This document shows, in pieces, positions 3,993-64,000 of a DNA stretch of 64,000 nt (its first letter is position 1; each line of letters begins with the position of its first letter). The notes under the pieces are model-generated. The model worked only from the letters and a program-made list of their open reading frames with translations, was not told the origin of the DNA and made no database searches. The translations under genes were made by a program, and so were the position numbers. Source of the DNA: Candidatus Omnitrophota bacterium (GTDB lineage Bacteria > Omnitrophota > Gorgyraeia > Gygaellales > Profunditerraquicolaceae); NCBI GenBank assembly GCA_028712375.1, contig JAQTQG010000001.1, positions 110,126 through 174,125 on the forward strand, read 5' to 3'.

Positions 3993-5597
3993 TTGAGAAA
4001 TAAAAATTTTTATTTAGTCATAGGCTTAATTTTTGTTTTAGGGGTTATTTTGCGGGTTGTATTTTCTCCTCCGATAAATTTCGAAACAGATTCGTTTTCC
4101 GTGCTTTTATCGGCAAAAAATATTGCAGAAGCCGGCAGGTACCTGATTCCGCCGGTCAGGTTAACGGATGGCAGCGGATATCAACCTTTTCCCGGTTGGG
4201 CGGTGGGGTGTCCGTTAACTCTGGCGGTATTTTTTAAATTATTGGGATATTCTGAGGCACTCGCCAGGCTTCTGACAATTTTGGCGGCTTCAGCTGTAAT
4301 TCCGATTATTGGATTATTGGGAAACAGGCTTTATGGGGAAAAATCAGGTATTATCGCCGCAATCTTTGTAGCATTGAATCCATTTTTAATATGCATTAAC
4401 AGCAGAATTCTTACCATAAACTTCAGTTTTTGTTTCTTTACTATTAGTATTGCGCTGCTTTTGTTATCCGCTTTAAGTTCAGATAAAACTGAGTTTATAA
4501 GCGCGCAGGTGATTTTTAGTTCAGTAAAGAGGTGGGTATTACTGTTGGTTTCATTTCTATTTTTAGGTTTTACGTTGGGAACAAGGGATGATTATGCGAT
4601 GTTTGTATTTGTTTTTATTATTATTTTGGCGGCTATAGTGAAAGCCAGCTATAAGCAGGCAGCAGAAAACAGGAGAATCAGCCTTCTAAAATTATTTTTA
4701 TTGGCAGCGGCATTAACTTTTATCGGATATTTACCTAATATTTATTTTAACTTTGTTAATTATGGCCGGTTTATTACTTCATCTCACTACGAATACGGCG
4801 GAAGGTTAAGCCTGGAATATTTCTTGCACGGCCCGCACACCGGACTCGGGCTGCCAGGCTGGATTGTTATGTTGTTGGCTGTTTTTATTTATGTTTTTCC
4901 TATTATGGGCATATTTTTACTTAATTTTAAAAGTAAAGCCAATCTATTGTTGGTTGCCATGATTTTTTTAATTATCCTGCCTGTTATTTTGATCGCAGGT
5001 GCGTATTTCACGGCTTCCAGCGGCGGGGCTCCCCGGTATATCCTTCCGGTTATTCCATTTGTGCTGCTTTCTGCCGGAGCGGTTTTTGCTACAGGCGGTG
5101 GCCCGGTTCGGTATTTTCTAAAAAGTATTTTTTTAACCTGCTTAATCTTCTGGAATGTTATTTTGTTTTATCCTCCAGTTGTGCTTTTTAAGGCTTACCC
5201 AAAAATTGCATATTTAACCCAATATTCGCCATGGTATAACCTGAATAACTTTTTAAACTATCCGCATCCAGTTAAAACTATGCTAGCCTGGGTAAAGAGC
5301 AATACTGCCGCTGATGCGGTGATCTTAAGTGATTATGACAGTTATCATTATTTTTTCTACGCTCAGCGCGATATTGCCAGCCGGGATAATCTTATGGAGG
5401 TAAAAAAGATTTTAACCTCCAGGCCGGTATTTTTTATTGAAGACCATCAGACCTTAAAAGATCCGGTGTCATTTTCCGCCTGGGCGCAAGAGCTGAGTAA
5501 ATATTCAATATCCATGGAGCAGAGATACAGTTTGCCGTTATTCAGTCCGCTTAAGGGGCAGGTGCAGTTAAAAATTTATGAATTAATAAATAAGTAG
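3993..5597 (+). CDS. GT-C fold polytopic membrane glycosyltransferase (ArnT/PMT-like, GT39/GT83-like)
   Basis: 534 aa, more than 10 predicted TM helices. Acidic residues in the first extracytoplasmic loop (FETDSF). Large C-terminal soluble domain. Sits immediately upstream of an ArnC-like GT2. TTG start with AAGGAT RBS. Confidence 0.5.
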   Translation: MRNKNFYLVIGLIFVLGVILRVVFSPPINFETDSFSVLLSAKNIAEAGRYLIPPVRLTDGSGYQPFPGWAVGCPLTLAVFFKLLGYSEALARLLTILAASAVIPIIGLLGNRLYGEKSGIIAAIFVALNPFLICINSRILTINFSFCFFTISIALLLLSALSSDKTEFISAQVIFSSVKRWVLLLVSFLFLGFTLGTRDDYAMFVFVFIIILAAIVKASYKQAAENRRISLLKLFLLAAALTFIGYLPNIYFNFVNYGRFITSSHYEYGGRLSLEYFLHGPHTGLGLPGWIVMLLAVFIYVFPIMGIFLLNFKSKANLLLVAMIFLIILPVILIAGAYFTASSGGAPRYILPVIPFVLLSAGAVFATGGGPVRYFLKSIFLTCLIFWNVILFYPPVVLFKAYPKIAYLTQYSPWYNLNNFLNYPHPVKTMLAWVKSNTAADAVILSDYDSYHYFFYAQRDIASRDNLMEVKKILTSRPVFFIEDHQTLKDPVSFSAWAQELSKYSISMEQRYSLPLFSPLKGQVQLKIYELINK

Positions 5598-44841: not shown

Positions 44842-45933
44842 ATGAAAGTATTGATTATTCATGCTTCAGCCGGAGCCGGTCACCGCAGGGCGGCGGAAGC
44901 AATCTATAGTTATTTAAAAGAGAATTCTCCGGAACTGGATCTGGTGCTTCTGGATGCTTTGGATAAGACTAATGCTTTATTCAAATTTGATTATACTAAA
45001 GGGTATTCGTTTTTAGTGCACTATGCCACCAAACTGTGGCATTGGGCTTTTTTGGCGACCGATTGCAAGTTTTTGCGCCCGGTCAGCCGGGCTTTGGCGC
45101 GCATAATTAATTCTATTAATTCGCAAAAGTTAATTCAGTATTTTATTCATGAAAATCCCGACGTTATTGTTTCCACGCATTTTCTCCCTTCGGAGCTGGC
45201 GGCCGATTTAAAGAATCAACATAGGATTAGTTCAAAATTAATTACGGTTATTACGGATTACGGAGTACATCCTTTTTGGATTTCCGGGGGAACCGATTTG
45301 TATGTAGTTGCGTCGGATTTTACTAAAGAGCGGCTGGTAATGGAGGGGGTGGATGCCGGCAGAGTCAGTGTTTTGGGACTGCCTTTTGACCCGAAATTTT
45401 TAAGGCATTTTGACCGCAGGATTCTTTGTCATAAGCTTGGAATAGACCACAAGCAATTCACTGTTTTATTAATGACCGGTTCTTTTGGCTTGGGTCCGCT
45501 TGAGGAAATTACCGAAGCTTTACATAAAGATTGCCAGGTTTTAGTGGTTTGCGCCGGGAATGAAAAACTTTACGAGAAATTGCTTAAACGTAACCTGGAG
45601 AATGTTAAAGTTTTTGGCTTTATTTCAAATACTGAAGAGCTGATGGCTGCCGCACAGGTAATTATTACTAAACCAGGCGGTGCTACGATTACTGAGGTGT
45701 TGATTATGGAGCTGCCGGTTGTGTTTATTAGCGCTATTCCGGGGCAGGAAACAGCTAACGTAGAAGCGTTGTCCGGATATGGTATCGGAATAACTCCTAA
45801 AAATATTGAAGAAATTAAAAGATACATCTTGTTTTTAAAAAACAACCCGCAAAAAATATTGGAATTGCGACAAAAGATCAGGGAAGTTCAAAAGCCGTTT
45901 GCGTGTAAGGAGTTGGCTAGTGTTATACGCTAA
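44842..45933 (+). CDS. MGDG-synthase/diacylglycerol glycosyltransferase-like GT28 family glycosyltransferase
   Basis: 363 aa. N-terminal MKVLIIHASAGAGHRRAAEAI matches the MGDG_synth/UgtP-like domain. C-terminal GT28 domain (ITKPGGATITE). Confidence 0.6.
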   Translation: MKVLIIHASAGAGHRRAAEAIYSYLKENSPELDLVLLDALDKTNALFKFDYTKGYSFLVHYATKLWHWAFLATDCKFLRPVSRALARIINSINSQKLIQYFIHENPDVIVSTHFLPSELAADLKNQHRISSKLITVITDYGVHPFWISGGTDLYVVASDFTKERLVMEGVDAGRVSVLGLPFDPKFLRHFDRRILCHKLGIDHKQFTVLLMTGSFGLGPLEEITEALHKDCQVLVVCAGNEKLYEKLLKRNLENVKVFGFISNTEELMAAAQVIITKPGGATITEVLIMELPVVFISAIPGQETANVEALSGYGIGITPKNIEEIKRYILFLKNNPQKILELRQKIREVQKPFACKELASVIR

Positions 45934-47731
45934 TGTTGTGTTGGGCTTACCGGTTGAAGGGCCGTTTGATTATCTTGTGCCGGTGGATTTAGAAAGTAAG
46001 GTTAAGGTTGGTTCAAGGGTTTGGGTGAATTTCCGCAATAAAAAAGAAGTTGCCTACATCGTAGAATTAAACAATAAAACTAAAATTAAAAAAATAAAAG
46101 AAATCGCTTCAGTGATCGATATTTTTCCGGTTCTAGATGAACCCATGTTTTTATTAACCAGGAAGCTGGCGCAATATTATTGCTGTTCTTGGGGTGAGGC
46201 AATTGAAGCGGCGCTGCCGGATGAGCTAAGAAAAGGCAGGCGTTTGGAGGCGCGCCTGCCGGAGGCAAGCCAGTTTTTTGATAAAGCAGTAAATGAACAA
46301 GAGCAGCGTTTACTTTTTGTGCAGGGTTTTAGCCGGATGCCGGTTTATTTAAGGGAAATCAAAAAATCCCTGGCGTCTAAGAAATCAGTAATTGTCCTGT
46401 GCAGTAATATCTTAATTGCGGAGAAATTCAAAGCGGTTATTCAGGTTGGTCTGGAAGCGGAAGTTTTTATTGCTCACCGTAAGCAGGCGGCCGAATTAGA
46501 GGTTTGGAAAAAAATCAAACAAGCAGGCTTTTGTGTAGTGGTGGGGACGCGTTCAAACATTTTCTCGCCGGTTAATAATTTAGGATTGATAATTGTCGAT
46601 CAGGAGGAAGACCAGGTATACAAGCAGGAACAGGCTCCGCATTATCATGCCCGGGAAGTCGCGCTGATGCGCGCGCAAATTCAGGGCGCAAAGGTTATTT
46701 TGGGCAGTCATTGTTTATCTCTTGAAGGATTTTATTTAATGCAAAAAGACAAGCTGGACCTGGAAGTTATTTCTGCGCAACAGGCCTATCCTCAAGTAAA
46801 AGTTATTGACGTGCGCCGCCTGGCTTACGCGGACAGAAAGAACAAGTCCATATTTTCTAAATTTCTGGTAGACGCGATACAGGCTGTTTTGGTTGAAAAA
46901 GGTAAAGTTTTATTAGTGATTAACCGCAAAGGTTTTGCTACAACCGTTGCCTGCCATAATTGTGGTGTGGCTTTAAAATGTCCGCGTTGCGATATTAATC
47001 TGGTGCTGCATTTTGATCAAGATGAATTAAGGTGCCATCATTGTAATTTTAAAATGCCGCTGCCTAAGATTTGCCCGAACTGTAACGCCGGGTATATTAA
47101 ATATTTCGGCCTGGGTACGGAAAAGGTGGAAAGTGAATTGTCCAGGATTTTTCCGCAAGCGCGTATCGGCCAGGATATTATAGTGGCAACCGGTTCAATA
47201 GCCAGCCAGCAGGGGCTAAGTTTTGATTTGATCGGAGTGATGGTAATCGACGATTCTCTTAACCGGGTAGATTACCGGGCAGCAGAAAAGACCTTTTCCA
47301 TGCTTTCCGGAATCATTAATTTGACTTTTAAAAAGGTGATTATTCAAAGCTCTAATGCCAGCCATCCCTGTTTTCAGGCTTTGATAAAAAACGATCCGCA
47401 GCTTTTTTTAAAAGAAGAGTTGAAGGCGCGCAAGCAGCTGAATTTTTCTCCTTTTGGCCATATGATTTTACTTAAGATCCGGGGGAGAGATTTGGAAAGA
47501 ACTAAAAAATCCTCCCAAGATTTATTCCAGAGATTAAACGGAATTAAAACCAGCAGCTTGAAGTTGCTTGCTCTTAATCCTGCCCAACCGGCAAAATTGC
47601 GGGGGAATTTTTACTATCAAATATTGATGCGCACTCTTCACGTAGAAAAAGCCGTTCATTTTTTAAAATTACACTTAAAAGAAGGGCATTATTCGGGTAT
47701 AATAGTTACCGTAGATGTGGATCCGGTTTAG
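45899..47731 (+). CDS. priA: Primosomal protein N' homolog (PriA) with degenerate helicase ATPase motifs
   Basis: 610 aa. Colinear with PriA, including the Cys4 zinc-binding region (CHNCGVALKCPRCD...CHHCNF...CPNCN). Walker A reads QGFSRMPV instead of GVTGSGKT. Walker B reads DQEE instead of DEEH. Motif VI is not recognisable. The start may be GTG 45920 (VLYANVVLGLPV). Confidence 0.75.
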   Translation: MRVRSWLVLYANVVLGLPVEGPFDYLVPVDLESKVKVGSRVWVNFRNKKEVAYIVELNNKTKIKKIKEIASVIDIFPVLDEPMFLLTRKLAQYYCCSWGEAIEAALPDELRKGRRLEARLPEASQFFDKAVNEQEQRLLFVQGFSRMPVYLREIKKSLASKKSVIVLCSNILIAEKFKAVIQVGLEAEVFIAHRKQAAELEVWKKIKQAGFCVVVGTRSNIFSPVNNLGLIIVDQEEDQVYKQEQAPHYHAREVALMRAQIQGAKVILGSHCLSLEGFYLMQKDKLDLEVISAQQAYPQVKVIDVRRLAYADRKNKSIFSKFLVDAIQAVLVEKGKVLLVINRKGFATTVACHNCGVALKCPRCDINLVLHFDQDELRCHHCNFKMPLPKICPNCNAGYIKYFGLGTEKVESELSRIFPQARIGQDIIVATGSIASQQGLSFDLIGVMVIDDSLNRVDYRAAEKTFSMLSGIINLTFKKVIIQSSNASHPCFQALIKNDPQLFLKEELKARKQLNFSPFGHMILLKIRGRDLERTKKSSQDLFQRLNGIKTSSLKLLALNPAQPAKLRGNFYYQILMRTLHVEKAVHFLKLHLKEGHYSGIIVTVDVDPV

Positions 47732-47749: not shown

Positions 47750-48694
47750 ATGAGAATAATATTTTTCGGCAGCGCACATTTTGGAACTTTAGCGCTTAAA
47801 GCGCTGATTAAAAGCCGGCATGAATTAGTCTGCGTAGTGACTCAACCGGATAAACAAAAAGGCAGGCATTTGCAGTTAGCAGCTACGGATGTTAAGAATA
47901 CGGCGTTGGCCTCCGGGCTTAAAATTTTTCAGCCGGAGAATATTAATAGTAAAGAAAGTGAAGAATTATTGCATAGCCTGGATGCGGATATTTTTGTCAT
48001 TGCGGCTTATGGCCAAATATTATCCCAGAAGATTCTGGATATTCCCAAGATTATGCCGGTTAATATTCATGCTTCGTTGCTGCCGCGTTACCGGGGTGCT
48101 GCTCCGATCAACTGGTCAATAATTAACGGTGATAAGAAAACCGGAGTTACGATAATGTATGTAACCCGAAAAATGGATTCCGGCCCGATAATTATGCAGA
48201 AAGAAGTAAGGATTGAGGATAAAGATACTGCTGTCAGCCTTGAGGAGAAGTTAAGTATTTGCGGGGCAGGCCTTTTAATGGAGGCATTGGCTATTATTGA
48301 TAGCCGTAATTATCGTCTAGTGGAGCAGGATGAAGAAAAAGTTATTTATGCTCCGAAGATGAAAAAAGATGTTGGTTTAATTGACTGGAATACTTCCGCG
48401 GTGAATATCCATAATCAGATAAAAGGAGTTGTTCCCTGGCCGGGAGCATTTACCAGTTATCGCAAGAAATTGCTTAAGATATTTCAGGCACAAGTTTTAC
48501 CGATATTCCCTGGGTATAAGCCTAGCCCCGGACAGGTAATCAGGGCTGATAAGCATGGTATTGTTGTGGCTTGCGCCAAAGGTTTTTTAGAGATTAAAGA
48601 ATTGCAGCTGGAAGCGGGAAAGCGTATGCCGGCTCAAAATTTCATTATTGGCCACAGGCTGGTTGCAGGGGAAATCTTAGGGGAAAACAAATAA
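47750..48694 (+). CDS. fmt: Methionyl-tRNA formyltransferase
   Basis: 314 aa. MRIIFFGS..FG, IAAYGQIL, NIHASLLPRYRGAAPI (formyltransferase SLLP motif), C-terminal Fmt domain. Confidence 0.9.
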   Translation: MRIIFFGSAHFGTLALKALIKSRHELVCVVTQPDKQKGRHLQLAATDVKNTALASGLKIFQPENINSKESEELLHSLDADIFVIAAYGQILSQKILDIPKIMPVNIHASLLPRYRGAAPINWSIINGDKKTGVTIMYVTRKMDSGPIIMQKEVRIEDKDTAVSLEEKLSICGAGLLMEALAIIDSRNYRLVEQDEEKVIYAPKMKKDVGLIDWNTSAVNIHNQIKGVVPWPGAFTSYRKKLLKIFQAQVLPIFPGYKPSPGQVIRADKHGIVVACAKGFLEIKELQLEAGKRMPAQNFIIGHRLVAGEILGENK

Positions 48695-48760: not shown

Positions 48761-49786
48761 ATGCCAGAATTAAGGAAAGATCCAATTATAGGTAGGTGGG
48801 TAATTATTGCCACTGAACGCGCGCGCCGCCCTGATCAGTTTGTTGGCCAGTTTAAGGAGCAGGAGGATGAGTCGGCCTGCCCATTTTGTGAAGGTAAGGA
48901 GGCAAATACGCCGCCTGAAATTTATGCTATCCGGCCGCGTAATTCCGCACATAATGGCCCGGGTTGGGATCTGCGCGTTATTCCCAGTATTTCTCCTTTT
49001 TTGAGGGTTGAAGGTGATCTTGACCGCCGCGGAAATGGTGTTTATGATGTAATGAACGGCGTGGGAGCGCATGAGATTGTTATTGAGACTAATCAGCATG
49101 TCGCTAATATGGCGGATTTAAGCGAGGAACAGATTGCCCGGGTGCTTAACTGCTATTCTGATAGAATCCTGGACTTAGAAAAAGATACCCGCCTGAAGTA
49201 TGTTTTAGTATTTAAAAATTACGGTAAGGGTTCCGGAGGCACGGGGATCAGGCATGCGCGTTCGCAATTAATTGCTACTCCGGTTAATCCTAAACGGGTA
49301 AAGGAAGAGCTAGCCGGAGCCCGGCTTTATTACGAGTATCATGAACGGTGCGTATTTTGCGATTTAATTAAACAGGAAATAGCACAAAAAGAACGTATCA
49401 TTCTGGATTATGACGGTTTTGTCGCGGTTAGCCCTTTTGCCGCCAGGTTTCCTTTTGAGACCTGGATTTTGCCTAAGAAGCACTGTAGTGATTTTACTTG
49501 TATGGATGCGCAGACCCGAAAAAATTTATCCCGGGTGCTTAAAGCGGTACTTTTAAAACTGAAAATCGGATTGAATGACCCGGATTATAATTATGTTATT
49601 CATACTGCGCCTTTTCGCCGGCAGAAAGTCGGTTATTGGAAAACTATTGACCAGGATTACCATTGGCATATCGAGATTATGCCGCGTTTAACTAAAGTGG
49701 CAGGTTTTGAATGGGGAACGGGTTTTTATATCTGCCCGCTTCCACCTGAAGATACAGCTAAGTTTTTAAGAGAGGTGGAGATTTAA
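48761..49786 (+). CDS. GalT-like HIT-superfamily nucleotidyltransferase paralog 1 (galactose-1-phosphate uridylyltransferase family), nucleophile His replaced
   Basis: 341 aa. CPFC zinc motif conserved. At the HPH active-site position it reads RHARSQ, whereas paralog 2 has HPHTQ. About 45% identical to the downstream paralog by eye. Confidence 0.65.
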   Translation: MPELRKDPIIGRWVIIATERARRPDQFVGQFKEQEDESACPFCEGKEANTPPEIYAIRPRNSAHNGPGWDLRVIPSISPFLRVEGDLDRRGNGVYDVMNGVGAHEIVIETNQHVANMADLSEEQIARVLNCYSDRILDLEKDTRLKYVLVFKNYGKGSGGTGIRHARSQLIATPVNPKRVKEELAGARLYYEYHERCVFCDLIKQEIAQKERIILDYDGFVAVSPFAARFPFETWILPKKHCSDFTCMDAQTRKNLSRVLKAVLLKLKIGLNDPDYNYVIHTAPFRRQKVGYWKTIDQDYHWHIEIMPRLTKVAGFEWGTGFYICPLPPEDTAKFLREVEI

Positions 49787-50787
49787 TGGGTGAATTAAGA
49801 AGAGACCCGGTGGTCGGCCGCTGGGTAATTGTAGATACAGATCGTCCAAAGAAGCCGGAAGATTTTAAATATGAACAACATATTCCCAATGGCGGTTTGT
49901 GCCCTTTTTGTTATGGTAATGAATTTATGACTCCGCCGGAAATAAGTTGTTTCCGTGACCCGGGTACAGGAGCCAATGCTCCGGGTTGGCAGGTGCGTGT
50001 GGTGGCTAATAAATTTCCTGCTTTGCAGATTGAAGGCGAGCTTGACCGCCGGGGATTAGGTATTTATGATATGTCTAACGGAATCGGCGCGCATGAAGTT
50101 TTAATTGAAAGCCCCTACCATAATAAAGATATTTCGGATCTCCTGCCTCAGGAAATTGAAAGTTACCTGAAGATGTGTTGTGTGCGTACGGCGGATTTAA
50201 GAAAAGACAGCCGTTTTAAATATATTATGGTTTTTCGTAATTATGGCTCAGCCGCAGGGGCATCTTTGGAGCATCCGCATACTCAGTTAGTTGCTTTGCC
50301 GATGGTGCCTAAAAATGCGTTGGAGGAAATTCGCGGAGCGCAGGATTATTATAATTACCGTGAACGTTGTATTTTTTGCGATATTATACGCCAGGAAATC
50401 CAGGATAAATCACGGATAATTTTAGAGAATAAATATTTTATTTCTTTTTGTCCTTTTGTTTCCCGGTTTCCCTTTGAGATTATGATTATGCCCAGGCAGC
50501 ATAGCAGTTATTTTTATCATATTTCCCCGGAGGAAACTGCGGCGCTGGCGCAAATCTTGAAGGATACTTTAACGAAACTAAAAAAAGTATTTGTAAATTT
50601 ATCATATAATTATATAATTCATTCTGCGCCTATTAATGGCGATGTGGGTGTAGAGTATTACCATTGGCATCTTGAAATTATGCCTAAGTTAACGCAAGTT
50701 GCAGGTTTTGAGTGGGGGACCGGTTTCTACCTAGATCCAACCTCTCCAGAGTTAGCCGCGCAATATTTAAAAGCCGTAAAAGACTAA
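49786..50787 (+). CDS. GalT-like HIT-superfamily nucleotidyltransferase paralog 2 (canonical HPH motif)
   Basis: 333 aa. CPFC, LEHPHTQLVALP, FEWGTGF motifs of the GalT family. Confidence 0.7.
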   Translation: MGELRRDPVVGRWVIVDTDRPKKPEDFKYEQHIPNGGLCPFCYGNEFMTPPEISCFRDPGTGANAPGWQVRVVANKFPALQIEGELDRRGLGIYDMSNGIGAHEVLIESPYHNKDISDLLPQEIESYLKMCCVRTADLRKDSRFKYIMVFRNYGSAAGASLEHPHTQLVALPMVPKNALEEIRGAQDYYNYRERCIFCDIIRQEIQDKSRIILENKYFISFCPFVSRFPFEIMIMPRQHSSYFYHISPEETAALAQILKDTLTKLKKVFVNLSYNYIIHSAPINGDVGVEYYHWHLEIMPKLTQVAGFEWGTGFYLDPTSPELAAQYLKAVKD

Positions 50788-61715: not shown

Positions 61716-64000
61716 ATGTATTTTAAAAGACTAGAGTTGGTTGGTTTTAAATCATTCTGTGATAAGACTACGCTTAATTTCGAACCGGGTATTACTGCGG
61801 TAGTCGGGCCGAATGGTTGCGGTAAATCTAATATTTTTGATTCCATCCGCTGGGTTTTGGGTGAGCAATCCGCAAAATCATTACGCGGCTCTGAAATGCT
61901 GGATGTTATTTTTAATGGTACGGATCAAAAAGAACCATTAAGCATGGCGGAGGTAAGCCTGGCATTTGATAATTCCAGCCGTTTTTTTAATGTGGATAAT
62001 TCGGAAGTGTTGATTACCCGCAGGCTCTTTAGGTCCGGTGAAAGTGAGTATATGCTGAATAAAGCCACCGTGCGGCTTAAAGATATTTTAGATTTATTAT
62101 TAGGCACAGGTATCGGGGCGGAAAGCTATTCGATTATTGCCCAGGGAAAAATCGATTTGGTTTTGAGTTCCCGCCCGGAAGACCGCCGGGTAGTTTTTGA
62201 TGAAGCCAGCGGAATAAGTAAATATAAGGCCCAGAAGAGAGAAACCACGCGAAAGTTAGAAGAGACAGAGCAAAATCTTTTACGTGTAAATGATATCGTG
62301 ACCGAAGTTAAGCGCCAGATTGGTTCCCTGGAACGCCAGGCGAACAAAGCCCGCCGTTATAAGGAAGTTTTTGAAGAATTAAAACTAAAGGAAACGAATG
62401 CTGCCAGTTTAGATAAAAATAATCTGCGGGCAGAAAAAGAAGGAGTGCTCGGGCAGTTGGCGGATTTGAAAAAAGAAGAAGCATCTTTAATTGAATTAAT
62501 CGCGCAGCAGGAAGCGAAAATTGCCAATCGCCAGTCGGAATTAAAAAGCCTTGAGGAAGCAATGATGGATGCGCGCAGCCAGATACTTAATTTGGAGAAT
62601 AGCCTGGTGCGCAATAATGAGCACATCAGTTTTAATCAGCAGCGGATTAATGAATTGATCCAGAATAACCAGGTTTTAGAAGGACAGATTGAACAGGCTA
62701 AAGCTAAGCTTCTGCAGGATGAAGAAAAGCTACAGCAGGTACGCGATGAATACGCTAATCTTAAACAGAACATAGAGGCAAAACAGTCCAGCTTAACGCA
62801 GAAAGAAGAAGAGATTGATAAGCTTAGTTTAAGTATAAAGAATTCGCTGGAACTGATTACCGAATGCAAGAAGGTTATTTTAGAATTAGAAAATTCAATT
62901 TCAAATACTAATAATCAAATCGGGGATTTTAATTCTAAGCATCAGGTTTATCTAGCCCGTAAAAAAAGGCTGGAAATTGAAAAGGCCAAAGTGTTTGAGG
63001 ATAAGGTGATTACCGAGGAGGCTTTAAATAAAGTCACCCAGGAATTAGAGGATACGCGGGCACAGGTGCTTGAGTTTAAACAGAAAATTTCCGATGTAAA
63101 GAGCAGCCTTCAGCGTGAAGGCCAAAATTTAGAGGAGATTAACCAGGGGATTTTGAACCTGGGGAATGAAAAGCTTACCCTGGTTTCCCACAAAGAATTT
63201 TTAGAAAAACTAAAAACTAAATATGAAGATATTGGTGAGTCATCCAATGCGGTTATTTTTCTGGATAAGATGCCCAATGAGAGCCTGACGGGCTTAGTAG
63301 TAAAAATTCAGGATCAGCTGGCTTTAAGTCCGCAGGACCGGGCGCATTTGAGTACTGCTGCTTTTAAAATAAGCGGTGAGGCTAAGCCGATTGAATTAGA
63401 TACGCAGAAAATTGATGAAAAGATTGCCAGGCTGGAAGAGAATATCGGTGAATTGCGTAATCGGATGGTGCTGCGGCAGGCTTGTATTTCGGAGCTAACC
63501 AAAACTTCCGATGATCTAGAGCTGGAGTTACGTAATTACGAGATTGCTTTAGCGAATAAAGAATCCAGCCACGCCGCAATCCAGGAGCAATTTGATAAAA
63601 TAAAAGAAGAAGAAGATGTGATTGTGATGGAATTGACTGATGTGGCGCGGGAAATTTCCGTGATCGAGCAGAATTTAACCAGCGCTCAGAGTACGCTGGC
63701 GGATTTAAATAACCAGGAAAGGTTAAGGCAAGACAAGATTGTTCAGGAAGAGGATGCTATTTCTTTAAATAGCAAATTACGTGAAGAGGTGCTGGTGTTT
63801 ATCACCCAGACTAAAACCGAGATTGAAGCTTTGAATAGGCGTTTTAGTTCCGATGCGGAAACTTTAAAGATACTGGATCAGACTTATGCGCAGGATAAAT
63901 CCAGCCTGGAAAATATTCAACGCCAGATTACTGAGGCTAAAGAGCGCCAGGAAGGTTTAAATAATGAAATTACTGAGTGTCAGTATGCTAATCAGCAGTC
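61716..64000 (+). CDS. smc: Chromosome segregation protein SMC (5' portion; continues beyond the window)
   Basis: The open frame runs from ATG 61716 (RBS AAGGAG) to the window edge. N-terminal Walker A head (MYFKRLELVGFKSF...AVVGPNGCGKSNI) followed by long coiled-coil sequence. Absent from the ORF track only because no stop falls inside the window. Confidence 0.9.
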   Translation, partial: MYFKRLELVGFKSFCDKTTLNFEPGITAVVGPNGCGKSNIFDSIRWVLGEQSAKSLRGSEMLDVIFNGTDQKEPLSMAEVSLAFDNSSRFFNVDNSEVLITRRLFRSGESEYMLNKATVRLKDILDLLLGTGIGAESYSIIAQGKIDLVLSSRPEDRRVVFDEASGISKYKAQKRETTRKLEETEQNLLRVNDIVTEVKRQIGSLERQANKARRYKEVFEELKLKETNAASLDKNNLRAEKEGVLGQLADLKKEEASLIELIAQQEAKIANRQSELKSLEEAMMDARSQILNLENSLVRNNEHISFNQQRINELIQNNQVLEGQIEQAKAKLLQDEEKLQQVRDEYANLKQNIEAKQSSLTQKEEEIDKLSLSIKNSLELITECKKVILELENSISNTNNQIGDFNSKHQVYLARKKRLEIEKAKVFEDKVITEEALNKVTQELEDTRAQVLEFKQKISDVKSSLQREGQNLEEINQGILNLGNEKLTLVSHKEFLEKLKTKYEDIGESSNAVIFLDKMPNESLTGLVVKIQDQLALSPQDRAHLSTAAFKISGEAKPIELDTQKIDEKIARLEENIGELRNRMVLRQACISELTKTSDDLELELRNYEIALANKESSHAAIQEQFDKIKEEEDVIVMELTDVAREISVIEQNLTSAQSTLADLNNQERLRQDKIVQEEDAISLNSKLREEVLVFITQTKTEIEALNRRFSSDAETLKILDQTYAQDKSSLENIQRQITEAKERQEGLNNEITECQYANQQ

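Follow-up and report, generated by a model that had tools for sequence, protein, structure and literature searches.

Can a bacterium keep PriA, the replication restart protein, after the motor within it has degenerated, and what would such a protein then do? The question is raised by a gene in a stretch of 64,000 nucleotides from a Candidatus Omnitrophota bacterium (NCBI GenBank assembly GCA_028712375.1, contig JAQTQG010000001.1, positions 110,126 to 174,125 of the forward strand), which was analysed as a whole and is called the window below. The gene, priA*, occupies positions 45920..47731 of the window on the plus strand and encodes a degenerate (pseudohelicase) form of PriA, written PriA* here. 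We found that most of the sequence signature of the motor is gone from this protein, that elements tied to the motor-independent functions of PriA are kept, and that the gene is under purifying selection in the slot in which other Omnitrophota carry a canonical priA. The original prediction, made from the letters alone, had described a PriA homolog that cannot hydrolyse ATP or unwind DNA.

Identity of the gene

The open reading frame at 45899..47731 (+), 610 amino acids (aa) long, is present in the list of open reading frames. It begins mechanically at a TTG (45899), but the real start is probably the GTG at 45920, because a Shine-Dalgarno-like AAGGAG (45907..45912, +) precedes it by 7 nt and because all orthologs, as well as the NCBI protein P0001, begin there; the product would then have 603 aa. 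P0001, also of 603 aa and titled 'MAG: primosomal protein N'', Candidatus Omnitrophica bacterium, is 100% identical to the window protein.

The gene is a member of the PriA family by profile models, domains, fold and gene order. In the numbering of the 610-aa frame, Pfam matches PriA_3primeBD (PF17764, residues 12-107, E=7e-26), Zn_ribbon_PriA (PF18319, residues 361-387, E=1.2e-10) and PriA_C (PF18074, residues 518-609, E=6.6e-11). These matches mark the 3' DNA-binding domain (3'BD; 45932..46219, +), in which the end-binding pocket residues are kept, the Cys-rich region (CRR; 46952..47083, +), which is inserted in lobe 2 and carries four CxxC motifs with two predicted zinc sites, and the C-terminal domain (CTD; 47450..47725, +), with a conserved K/R pair and a conserved terminal VDVDP. 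No match to DEAD, ResIII or Helicase_C appeared in the Pfam scan of the protein, even at E<=1. The NCBIfam model TIGR00595 (priA) is matched with 363.3 bits against a cut-off of 230.35, and the narrower PRK05580 sub-models all score under their cut-offs. A phmmer search against PDB found Klebsiella PriA (4nl4) and E. coli PriA (E=5e-67). An AlphaFold2 model built on 63 orthologs (predicted TM-score 0.81) has the overall PriA fold with its two RecA-like lobes, and lobe 1 is modelled with a per-residue confidence (pLDDT) of about 86-94. The best Foldseek matches of this model are all PriA, namely 8fak_H (E=1.6e-39), 6dcr_A (2.2e-38), which is a winged-helix-deletion protein of E. coli PriA, and 4nl4 (2.9e-37).

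Motor motifs and retained elements

Motif states were read from alignments to Klebsiella PriA 4nl4, other solved PriAs and E. coli PriA. Motif I (Walker A; 46322..46345, +) is reduced to QGFSRMPV in place of TGSGKTEV, that is, GSGKT has become GFSRM with the lysine changed to arginine and the threonine to methionine. Motif II (Walker B; 46598..46609, +) reads DQEE for DEEH (DEEHD to DQEED), and the remnant of motif VI (47303..47332, +) reads LSGIINLTFK for QVAGRAGRAGK (GRAGR to GIINL), with both arginines lost and 5 aa deleted. The canonical motif Ia, PEIGLTPQ, is represented by SNILIAEK, and the canonical motif V, GTQMLAKGHHFP, by ATGSIASQQGLSF; at motif V the window protein reads ATGSIASQQ, and canonical Omnitrophota PriAs read GTQMxAKG. 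Among the motifs of active superfamily 2 (SF2) helicases, Q, I, Ia, II, V and VI are thus not found in the window protein, and motif III alone is kept as GTRSN (46544..46558, +; its R and S are conserved in 91% and 87% of the degenerate clade). Two further elements are retained, the aromatic-rich DNA-binding loop YKQEQAPHYHAR (46619..46654, +; pattern YKQEQxPHYHAR), which is invariant or near-invariant in close orthologs, and NRxGF.

Besides substitutions, the window protein has three deletions relative to P0337, a canonical Omnitrophota PriA: a helix of about 17 aa with a Q-motif-like TxEQ, about 24 aa of lobe 2 in the motif IV region, and the 5 aa inside motif VI. The Q-motif helix and the winged-helix domain, which in E. 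coli PriA comprises about 100 aa between 3'BD and lobe 1, are replaced by a short low-confidence linker (46220..46309, +; pLDDT <50 at residues 121-134). The loss of the winged helix was considered as a part of the degeneration and was ruled out, because the canonical Omnitrophota PriAs do not have this domain either; its absence is therefore unrelated to the state of the motor.

A P-loop might also have been relocated to another part of the protein. This was ruled out, as neither another P-loop ([AG]x4GK[ST]) nor the conserved GxGKT named in the original prediction was found elsewhere in the window protein; the [AG]x4GK[ST] pattern occurs in only 3 of 75 orthologs, sporadically and without conservation, and two of these three occurrences sit in the zinc ribbon. 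There is also no general P-loop oddity in this genome, since the P-loop of the SMC gene with which the window ends is a normal GPNGCGKS. In E. coli PriA, K230R alone abolishes ATPase and helicase activity (PMC4504706; PMC5778457). Judged by its sequence, the window PriA* is very likely to be without ATPase activity.

The description of the motifs in the original prediction was largely accurate. The alignments to 4nl4 and E. coli PriA bear out its Walker A (QGFSRMPV), its Walker B (DQEE) and the absence of the motif VI arginines, and with no Pfam helicase domain and with GFSRM, DQEE and GIINL at motifs I, II and VI, a PriA homolog without the residues for ATP hydrolysis is what we found as well. 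Its statement that all motifs are degenerate holds for I, Ia, II, V, VI and Q, but has to be narrowed in view of the retained motif III (GTRS), aromatic-rich loop and NRxGF. The protein was also said to be colinear with PriA and to keep the Cys-rich region and the C-terminal domain. Both regions are kept, but colinearity with E. coli PriA is incomplete: the winged helix is absent, and deletions have removed the Q-motif helix, a stretch of about 24 aa in lobe 2 and 5 aa inside motif VI.

Conservation and selection

Lost motifs and internal deletions on this scale could also mean that the gene is a decaying pseudogene or an assembly artefact. We give this explanation practically no probability, and it is in effect refuted by intact frames, by the ratio of nonsynonymous to synonymous substitution rates (dN/dS) and by residue conservation. 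Among 75 orthologs, which comprise the window and loci extracted from GTDB species-representative genomes and come from independent assemblies, the reading frame is intact in every one. Closely related pairs gave dN/dS values (NG86) of 0.09-0.17 when the entire gene was compared and of 0.04-0.24 for the two lobes that once formed the ATPase. Functional residues outside the catalytic motifs are still conserved at about 30% identity, and the predicted fold is confident.

Orthologs in related genomes were to be checked for the same substitutions, and they have them: GK[ST] occurs at motif I in none of the 75 orthologs, and 71 of them have arginine at the position of the Walker lysine (K230). All 75 also conserve the eight cysteines of the zinc sites. 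Among the 120 closest homologs, which are 63-100% identical, about 600 aa long throughout and Omnitrophota where named, the degenerate state is shared, with a common pattern of QGxxRxPVYL, IDQExD and no arginine in motif VI. Across species pairs, PriA* is about as conserved as its neighbour Fmt (e.g., 0.51 vs 0.52 and 0.68 vs 0.72 identity), while the canonical PriA of other Omnitrophota exceeds Fmt somewhat in conservation (e.g., 0.62 vs 0.54 and 0.73 vs 0.58). The constraint on PriA* is modestly relaxed, yet strong.

Residue statistics were compiled for 68 degenerate representatives (50% clustering), 22 intermediate and 116 canonical Omnitrophota sequences. All eight CRR cysteines are 100% conserved in the three sets. 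In the degenerate representatives, the 3'-end pocket is kept (D at the D17 equivalent in 96%, Y at the Y18 equivalent in 100%), as are the aromatic-rich loop (Y/K/Q 85-88%, P and Y 100%), NRxGF (85-100%) and the CTD K/R pair (88% and 99%). In the same sequences, the Q motif is a gap in 90%, G229 is lost, the K230 site is R in 53% and K in 10%, the T231 site is W in 54%, the T and Q of motif Ia, the H of motif II and most of motif V are lost, and the motif VI arginines (R584 and R587 equivalents) are at 0%. What has been lost is therefore specifically the equipment for binding and hydrolysing ATP.

Two further details should be recorded. The pocket aspartate (45968-45970; Asp 24 of the 610-aa frame and Asp 17 when counted from GTG 45920, corresponding to E. 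coli D17) is far commoner in degenerate than in canonical Omnitrophota sequences (96% D vs 22% D and 47% H). In addition, the glutamate at the E. coli E322 position is kept in 97% of the representatives, and arginine stands at the former Walker lysine in 71 of the 75 near orthologs; the pair may be structural, for instance by forming a salt bridge in an empty nucleotide site.

Gene order and orthology

The upstream neighbour of priA* is a conserved gene for a monogalactosyldiacylglycerol (MGDG)-synthase-like glycosyltransferase (GT; 44842..45933, +), identified by Pfam and synteny, whose 3' end overlaps the start of priA*. The downstream neighbour, identified by Pfam, is fmt, for methionyl-tRNA formyltransferase (47750..48694, +), which directly follows priA* in 62 of the 63 loci with room for it. 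Together with purifying selection, this confirms that the gene is retained in a conserved context upstream of fmt.

Canonical, intermediate and degenerate priA genes were all found in this one slot. In the canonical loci of P0337 (closed 1.43-Mb genome CP070780.1, L082), P0387 (L084) and P0417 (L172), the order is HAD, MGDG-type GT, a gene of the uracil-DNA glycosylase (UDG) superfamily, priA and fmt; the canonical locus of P0163 (L171) has a GT and, further on, priA, a TPR gene, fmt, two galT genes and gap. The partly degenerate P0257 (L085), P0203 (L086) and P0208 (L170) lie behind a UDG gene, with fmt following in L085 only. The transitional P0170 (L169), which has 654 aa and has lost all motifs, stands in the order GT2, HAD, GT, UDG, priA*, def, fmt, galT, galT, gap. 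The deep degenerate P0147 (L087/L088; 38% identity to the window protein) and the degenerate loci proper, i.e., the window and L002-L081, share the order aminotransferase, GT2, HAD, GT, priA*, fmt, galT, galT, gap. The genes in this slot may be read as a graded series, from canonical PriA through forms with motif VI lost and Walker A kept, and a form of 654 aa with all motifs lost, to the compacted proteins of about 610 aa. Because one conserved slot houses a canonical, intermediate or degenerate priA depending on the lineage, the window gene is a positional ortholog that descended in situ from a canonical priA and was vertically inherited.

This arrangement also bears on the possibility that PriA* is a subfunctionalised paralog, serving as a scaffold only, with a canonical helicase-active priA elsewhere in the genome. 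Many canonical PriAs of about 666 aa carry the label Candidatus Omnitrophota, which would suit such a division of labour, and the search for a second copy was confined to the window and flanks. However, the canonical and intermediate PriAs fill the same syntenic slot in different genomes, as orthologs and not paralogs would; neither the 64-kb window nor 1.1 Mb of flanking sequence (<=10 kb per side, 80 genomes) yielded a second PriA-like sequence; and, as a weak point, no length is shared between the contigs >100 kb of the degenerate and canonical lists, among the matches listed. We therefore consider a paralog improbable and regard PriA* as the positional ortholog of canonical PriA in its lineage.

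Several neighbouring genes vary along the series. Eight loci of canonical, intermediate or transitional type have upstream sequence, and in 7 of them a UDG-family gene lies directly upstream of priA, often overlapping it (L082 9313-10017; L084 9269-9940; L172 4784-5449; L169 3330-4001; L085 7280-8020; L086 7330-7998; L170 14-856). No UDG gene was found in the entire 64-kb window or in any degenerate-type flank that was fetched, and its loss from the priA slot coincides with the full degeneration of PriA. The order priA-def-fmt is classic in many bacteria. Here, def, for peptide deformylase, lies between priA* and fmt in the transitional locus only (L169 5952-6464), and it does not occur in the priA-fmt slot of the window or of the other Omnitrophota loci examined. 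Two tandem paralogous GalT/HIT-like genes (galactose-1-phosphate uridylyltransferase-type, DUF4921/DUF4931; 48761-49786 and 49786-50787) lie 3' of fmt, and the pair is kept at this place in degenerate, transitional and some canonical Omnitrophota loci.

Distribution and origin

The degenerate form is widespread in Omnitrophota. A scan of GTDB species-representative genomes found at least 370 that encode a relative, and the best 80 of these, from 80 different assemblies, are all Omnitrophota. Some of them carry the automatic label 'uncultured Planctomycetales'; in the records named 'uncultured Planctomycetales bacterium' (L007, L029, L031-L033, L035, L052, L055, L058, L060, L062, L067, L069), the degenerate priA is of the Omnitrophota type and stands in the same gene block, and their label is probably a default or mistaken taxonomy. 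An exhaustive HMMER search of 1.84 billion cluster representatives at 50% identity gave 20,388 matches, and the 142 full-length sequences among the nearest 150 representatives were used to build a tree. At least 86 of the 142 have neither GK[ST] at Walker A nor the arginines of motif VI, 49 are canonical and 7 are mixed, with Walker A kept and motif VI lost in 6 and the reverse in 1. The 86 degenerate members are mostly 600-640 aa long (some 645-807 aa), their lowest identities to the window protein are about 30%, and every named short degenerate representative is Candidatus Omnitrophota.

When the partly degenerate forms were used as seeds, a profile search found 117 PriAs of about 666 aa, of which 116 are fully canonical, with xSGKT (including ASGKT and SSGKT), PEIxLTPQ, DEEH, GTQMxAKG and GRAGRG and with Pfam DEAD, Helicase_C and ResIII. 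Since many of these canonical proteins carry the name Candidatus Omnitrophota, both types of PriA occur in the phylum. The matches listed in a scan of metagenome contigs with canonical Omnitrophota PriAs were generic bacterial PriAs with <=51% identity. The affiliation of the partly degenerate forms with Omnitrophota rests on their Omnitrophota-like synteny.

The window protein and P0147 share the deletions of the Q-motif helix and of 5 aa in motif VI, and we therefore favour a single origin of the degenerate form, as far as such sequence characters can tell. In a rough neighbour-joining tree of PriA, in which long-branch effects are possible, the degenerate clade is nested in a grade of intermediates. 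A neighbour-joining tree of fmt places the near degenerate loci in one clade apart from the canonical-type genomes and gives no firm position for the deep P0147 clade.

Isolated PriAs without Walker A and/or the motif VI arginines also appear amid canonical, longer PriAs of metagenomic bacteria, namely P0216 (807 aa), P0237 (674 aa), P0176/P0281 (823-830 aa) and P0205 (698 aa). By their sequences, loss of the PriA motor may be sporadic in further lineages, too.

Comparison with known PriA systems

A PriA pseudohelicase was described in Deinococcus-Thermus by Lopper, Boone & Morrow 2015 (PMC4504706), and this group has been named as the only exception to the conservation of PriA motifs (PMC4504706, PMC5778457). 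Our search of the literature for PriA in Omnitrophota or for other degenerate PriAs found nothing relevant. The likeness to Deinococcus that had been noted for the window protein is real, as the same Walker A K-to-R change is found there (PMC4504706). In both groups, PriA orthologs have degenerate motifs I and II with lysine replaced by arginine in Walker A, the change is lineage-wide rather than confined to a single strain, and fork recognition with helicase recruitment has been proposed to proceed without ATPase or helicase activity. The window protein thus has the sequence features of a pseudohelicase, being a PriA ortholog in which Walker A (Lys to Arg) and Walker B depart from the consensus throughout the lineage. 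The two groups differ in origin, which is independent, as canonical and intermediate orthologs occupy the same Omnitrophota gene block. They also differ in extent: the degeneration of Omnitrophota PriA* includes Q, Ia, IV, V and VI as well as deletions, set against a Deinococcus PriA compared for motifs I and II only, by its published description. Omnitrophota PriA* is moreover short (603 aa) and without a winged-helix domain when set beside its Deinococcus-Thermus counterpart. By these sequence characters, Omnitrophota PriA* is a second, independent, larger and more extreme case of a predicted pseudohelicase PriA beyond Deinococcus-Thermus.

A close relative with an intact motor is canonical Omnitrophota PriA. 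P0337, for example, has the same neighbourhood as PriA*, about 42% identity to it and its domains in the same order (3'BD, two RecA-like lobes without a winged helix before them, CRR, CTD). The canonical form differs in having intact motifs and matches to Pfam DEAD/ResIII/Helicase_C, in being about 60 aa longer and usually in having an overlapping UDG gene upstream.

Proposed function

What a PriA without a motor can do is known from E. coli. Replacement of the Walker A lysine (K230R, known as priA300, or K230A/D) removes ATPase, helicase and translocase activity and leaves primosome assembly and restart; K230R cells are near wild type in vivo, and the protein assembles primosomes in vitro (PMC5778457). 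Helicase activity is required only for some pathways, e.g., PriA-PriC and phage Mu (PMC5778457). The 3'BD pocket (D17, Y18) binds the 3' end of the nascent leading strand, the aromatic-rich loop touches the fork junction, CRR is implicated in partner (PriB) interaction, and CTD, which binds DNA, also contributes to the SSB-tail site (PMC5778457). D. radiodurans PriA, which shares the K-to-R change, shows neither ATPase nor helicase activity and yet binds ssDNA, forks and DnaB (PMC4504706). The E. coli variants are engineered point mutants of an intact helicase, whereas Omnitrophota PriA* is naturally without most of the motor signature; moreover, the variants depend on PriB and DnaT, and no such genes were found in the window. 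PriB and DnaT are not to be expected outside proteobacteria.

Because PriA* keeps exactly the elements tied to these motor-independent functions despite its wide loss of motor residues, we think that it probably is an ATP-independent platform for fork recognition and helicase loading, with its motor inactivated and partly deleted. PriA* would recognise abandoned forks or D-loops, contacting the fork through the end pocket of 3'BD, the aromatic-rich loop, the inert RecA-like lobes and CTD. The zinc-binding CRR and the neighbouring surfaces would then act as the assembly platform that returns the replicative helicase to DNA. Reloading would need neither ATP hydrolysis nor unwinding of the lagging-strand arm, as in E. 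coli priA300 and D. radiodurans PriA. Fork binding and helicase reloading are thus the functions that we infer to have been retained.

The extent of the remodelling leaves room for another explanation, in which PriA* still recognises DNA structures but no longer reloads the helicase and has become, for instance, a cap that protects the 3' end at forks, a polymerase block or a regulator. The changes exceed point inactivation, as deletions have taken away the Q-motif helix, the region of motif IV and some of motif VI; the enrichment of the pocket aspartate in the degenerate clade and the loss of the adjacent overlapping UDG gene along with full degeneration would also fit a new task. However, CRR is 100% conserved and the ancestral priA position is kept. 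Furthermore, no new function is needed to account for the retention of PriA*, because E. coli can restart replication with a helicase-dead PriA and DnaB is bound by the PriA of D. radiodurans. Neofunctionalisation is thus unlikely, although less so than the paralog considered above, and the platform for fork recognition and helicase loading remains our preferred explanation.

Several points speak against this explanation. ATPase loss, DNA binding and partner binding are deduced from sequence for every member of the clade. The window ORFs scanned, which were those outside about 23-38 kb and 40.3-41.4 kb, included no dnaB, dciA/dnaC or ssb. The second-copy search spans the window and flanks of up to 10 kb per side in 80 genomes. 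Constraint is slightly relaxed, with a PriA/Fmt identity ratio of about 0.95 in degenerate and about 1.1 in canonical genomes. Finally, the PriA and fmt trees give no firm deep branching order, and hence no firm number of independent losses.

The original prediction had gone further and implied a different mechanism of replication restart in this lineage. A helicase-dependent branch of restart would indeed have been lost, but E. coli priA300 (K230R) and D. radiodurans already provide examples of helicase-independent restart by PriA (PMC5778457), and we would speak of a lost branch rather than of a new mechanism gained. As to the lineage, the degenerate form does characterise a large Omnitrophota clade, but it is not phylum-wide, since many Omnitrophota have a canonical PriA in the same slot and intermediates exist as well.

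Other features of the window

The window is an uninterrupted co-directional stretch, with every ORF >=150 aa on the plus strand and a positive GC skew (0.12-0.26) in each 2-kb bin from 1 to 64000. Its first part (0-46 kb) is a polysaccharide or lipopolysaccharide-type biosynthesis cluster. The sugar-modification and glycosyltransferase genes of this cluster extend up to priA* (211-45933) and include DegT aminotransferases, many epimerases/dehydratases and GT2/GT4 enzymes, together with a Wzy-like O-antigen ligase, an asparagine-synthase-like gene and methyltransferases; Pfam gave no match for the ORFs at 1308-2222 and 3993-5597. The ORFs at about 23-38 kb and 40.3-41.4 kb showed no similarity to PriA. 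On the 3' side of fmt, the two GalT/HIT-like genes are followed by gap, pgk, tpiA, secG, transporters and a glgC-like gene, and further downstream by an acyl-CoA dehydrogenase gene with ETF (electron-transfer flavoprotein) genes and a truncated smc; this SMC-like gene (61716-64000; >760 aa read) is cut off by the 3' boundary of the window and for that reason does not appear in the list of open reading frames. Nothing was found when the window was scanned with Rfam and for tRNAs.

Biological meaning

For the organism, the finding may have a wide consequence, which we put forward tentatively and with less confidence than the function proposed for the protein itself. A large and ancient clade of ultra-small Omnitrophota, comprising hundreds of species, may restart replication wholly without a PriA motor; the graded series in one slot would record the stepwise conversion of an SF2 helicase into a scaffold for fork recognition and assembly, and the loss of the overlapping UDG gene would hint at a coordinated change in the processing of damaged forks. 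A caution for annotation also follows, as PriA* proteins are named 'replication restart helicase PriA' by rule, scoring above the cut-off of TIGR00595. The series of canonical, intermediate and degenerate forms within one phylum could be used for comparative biochemistry, and Omnitrophota PriA* offers a natural map of the residues that matter for motor-independent PriA function. A second and larger lineage of this kind would strengthen the view that the indispensable job of PriA is fork recognition and primosome assembly, not unwinding.

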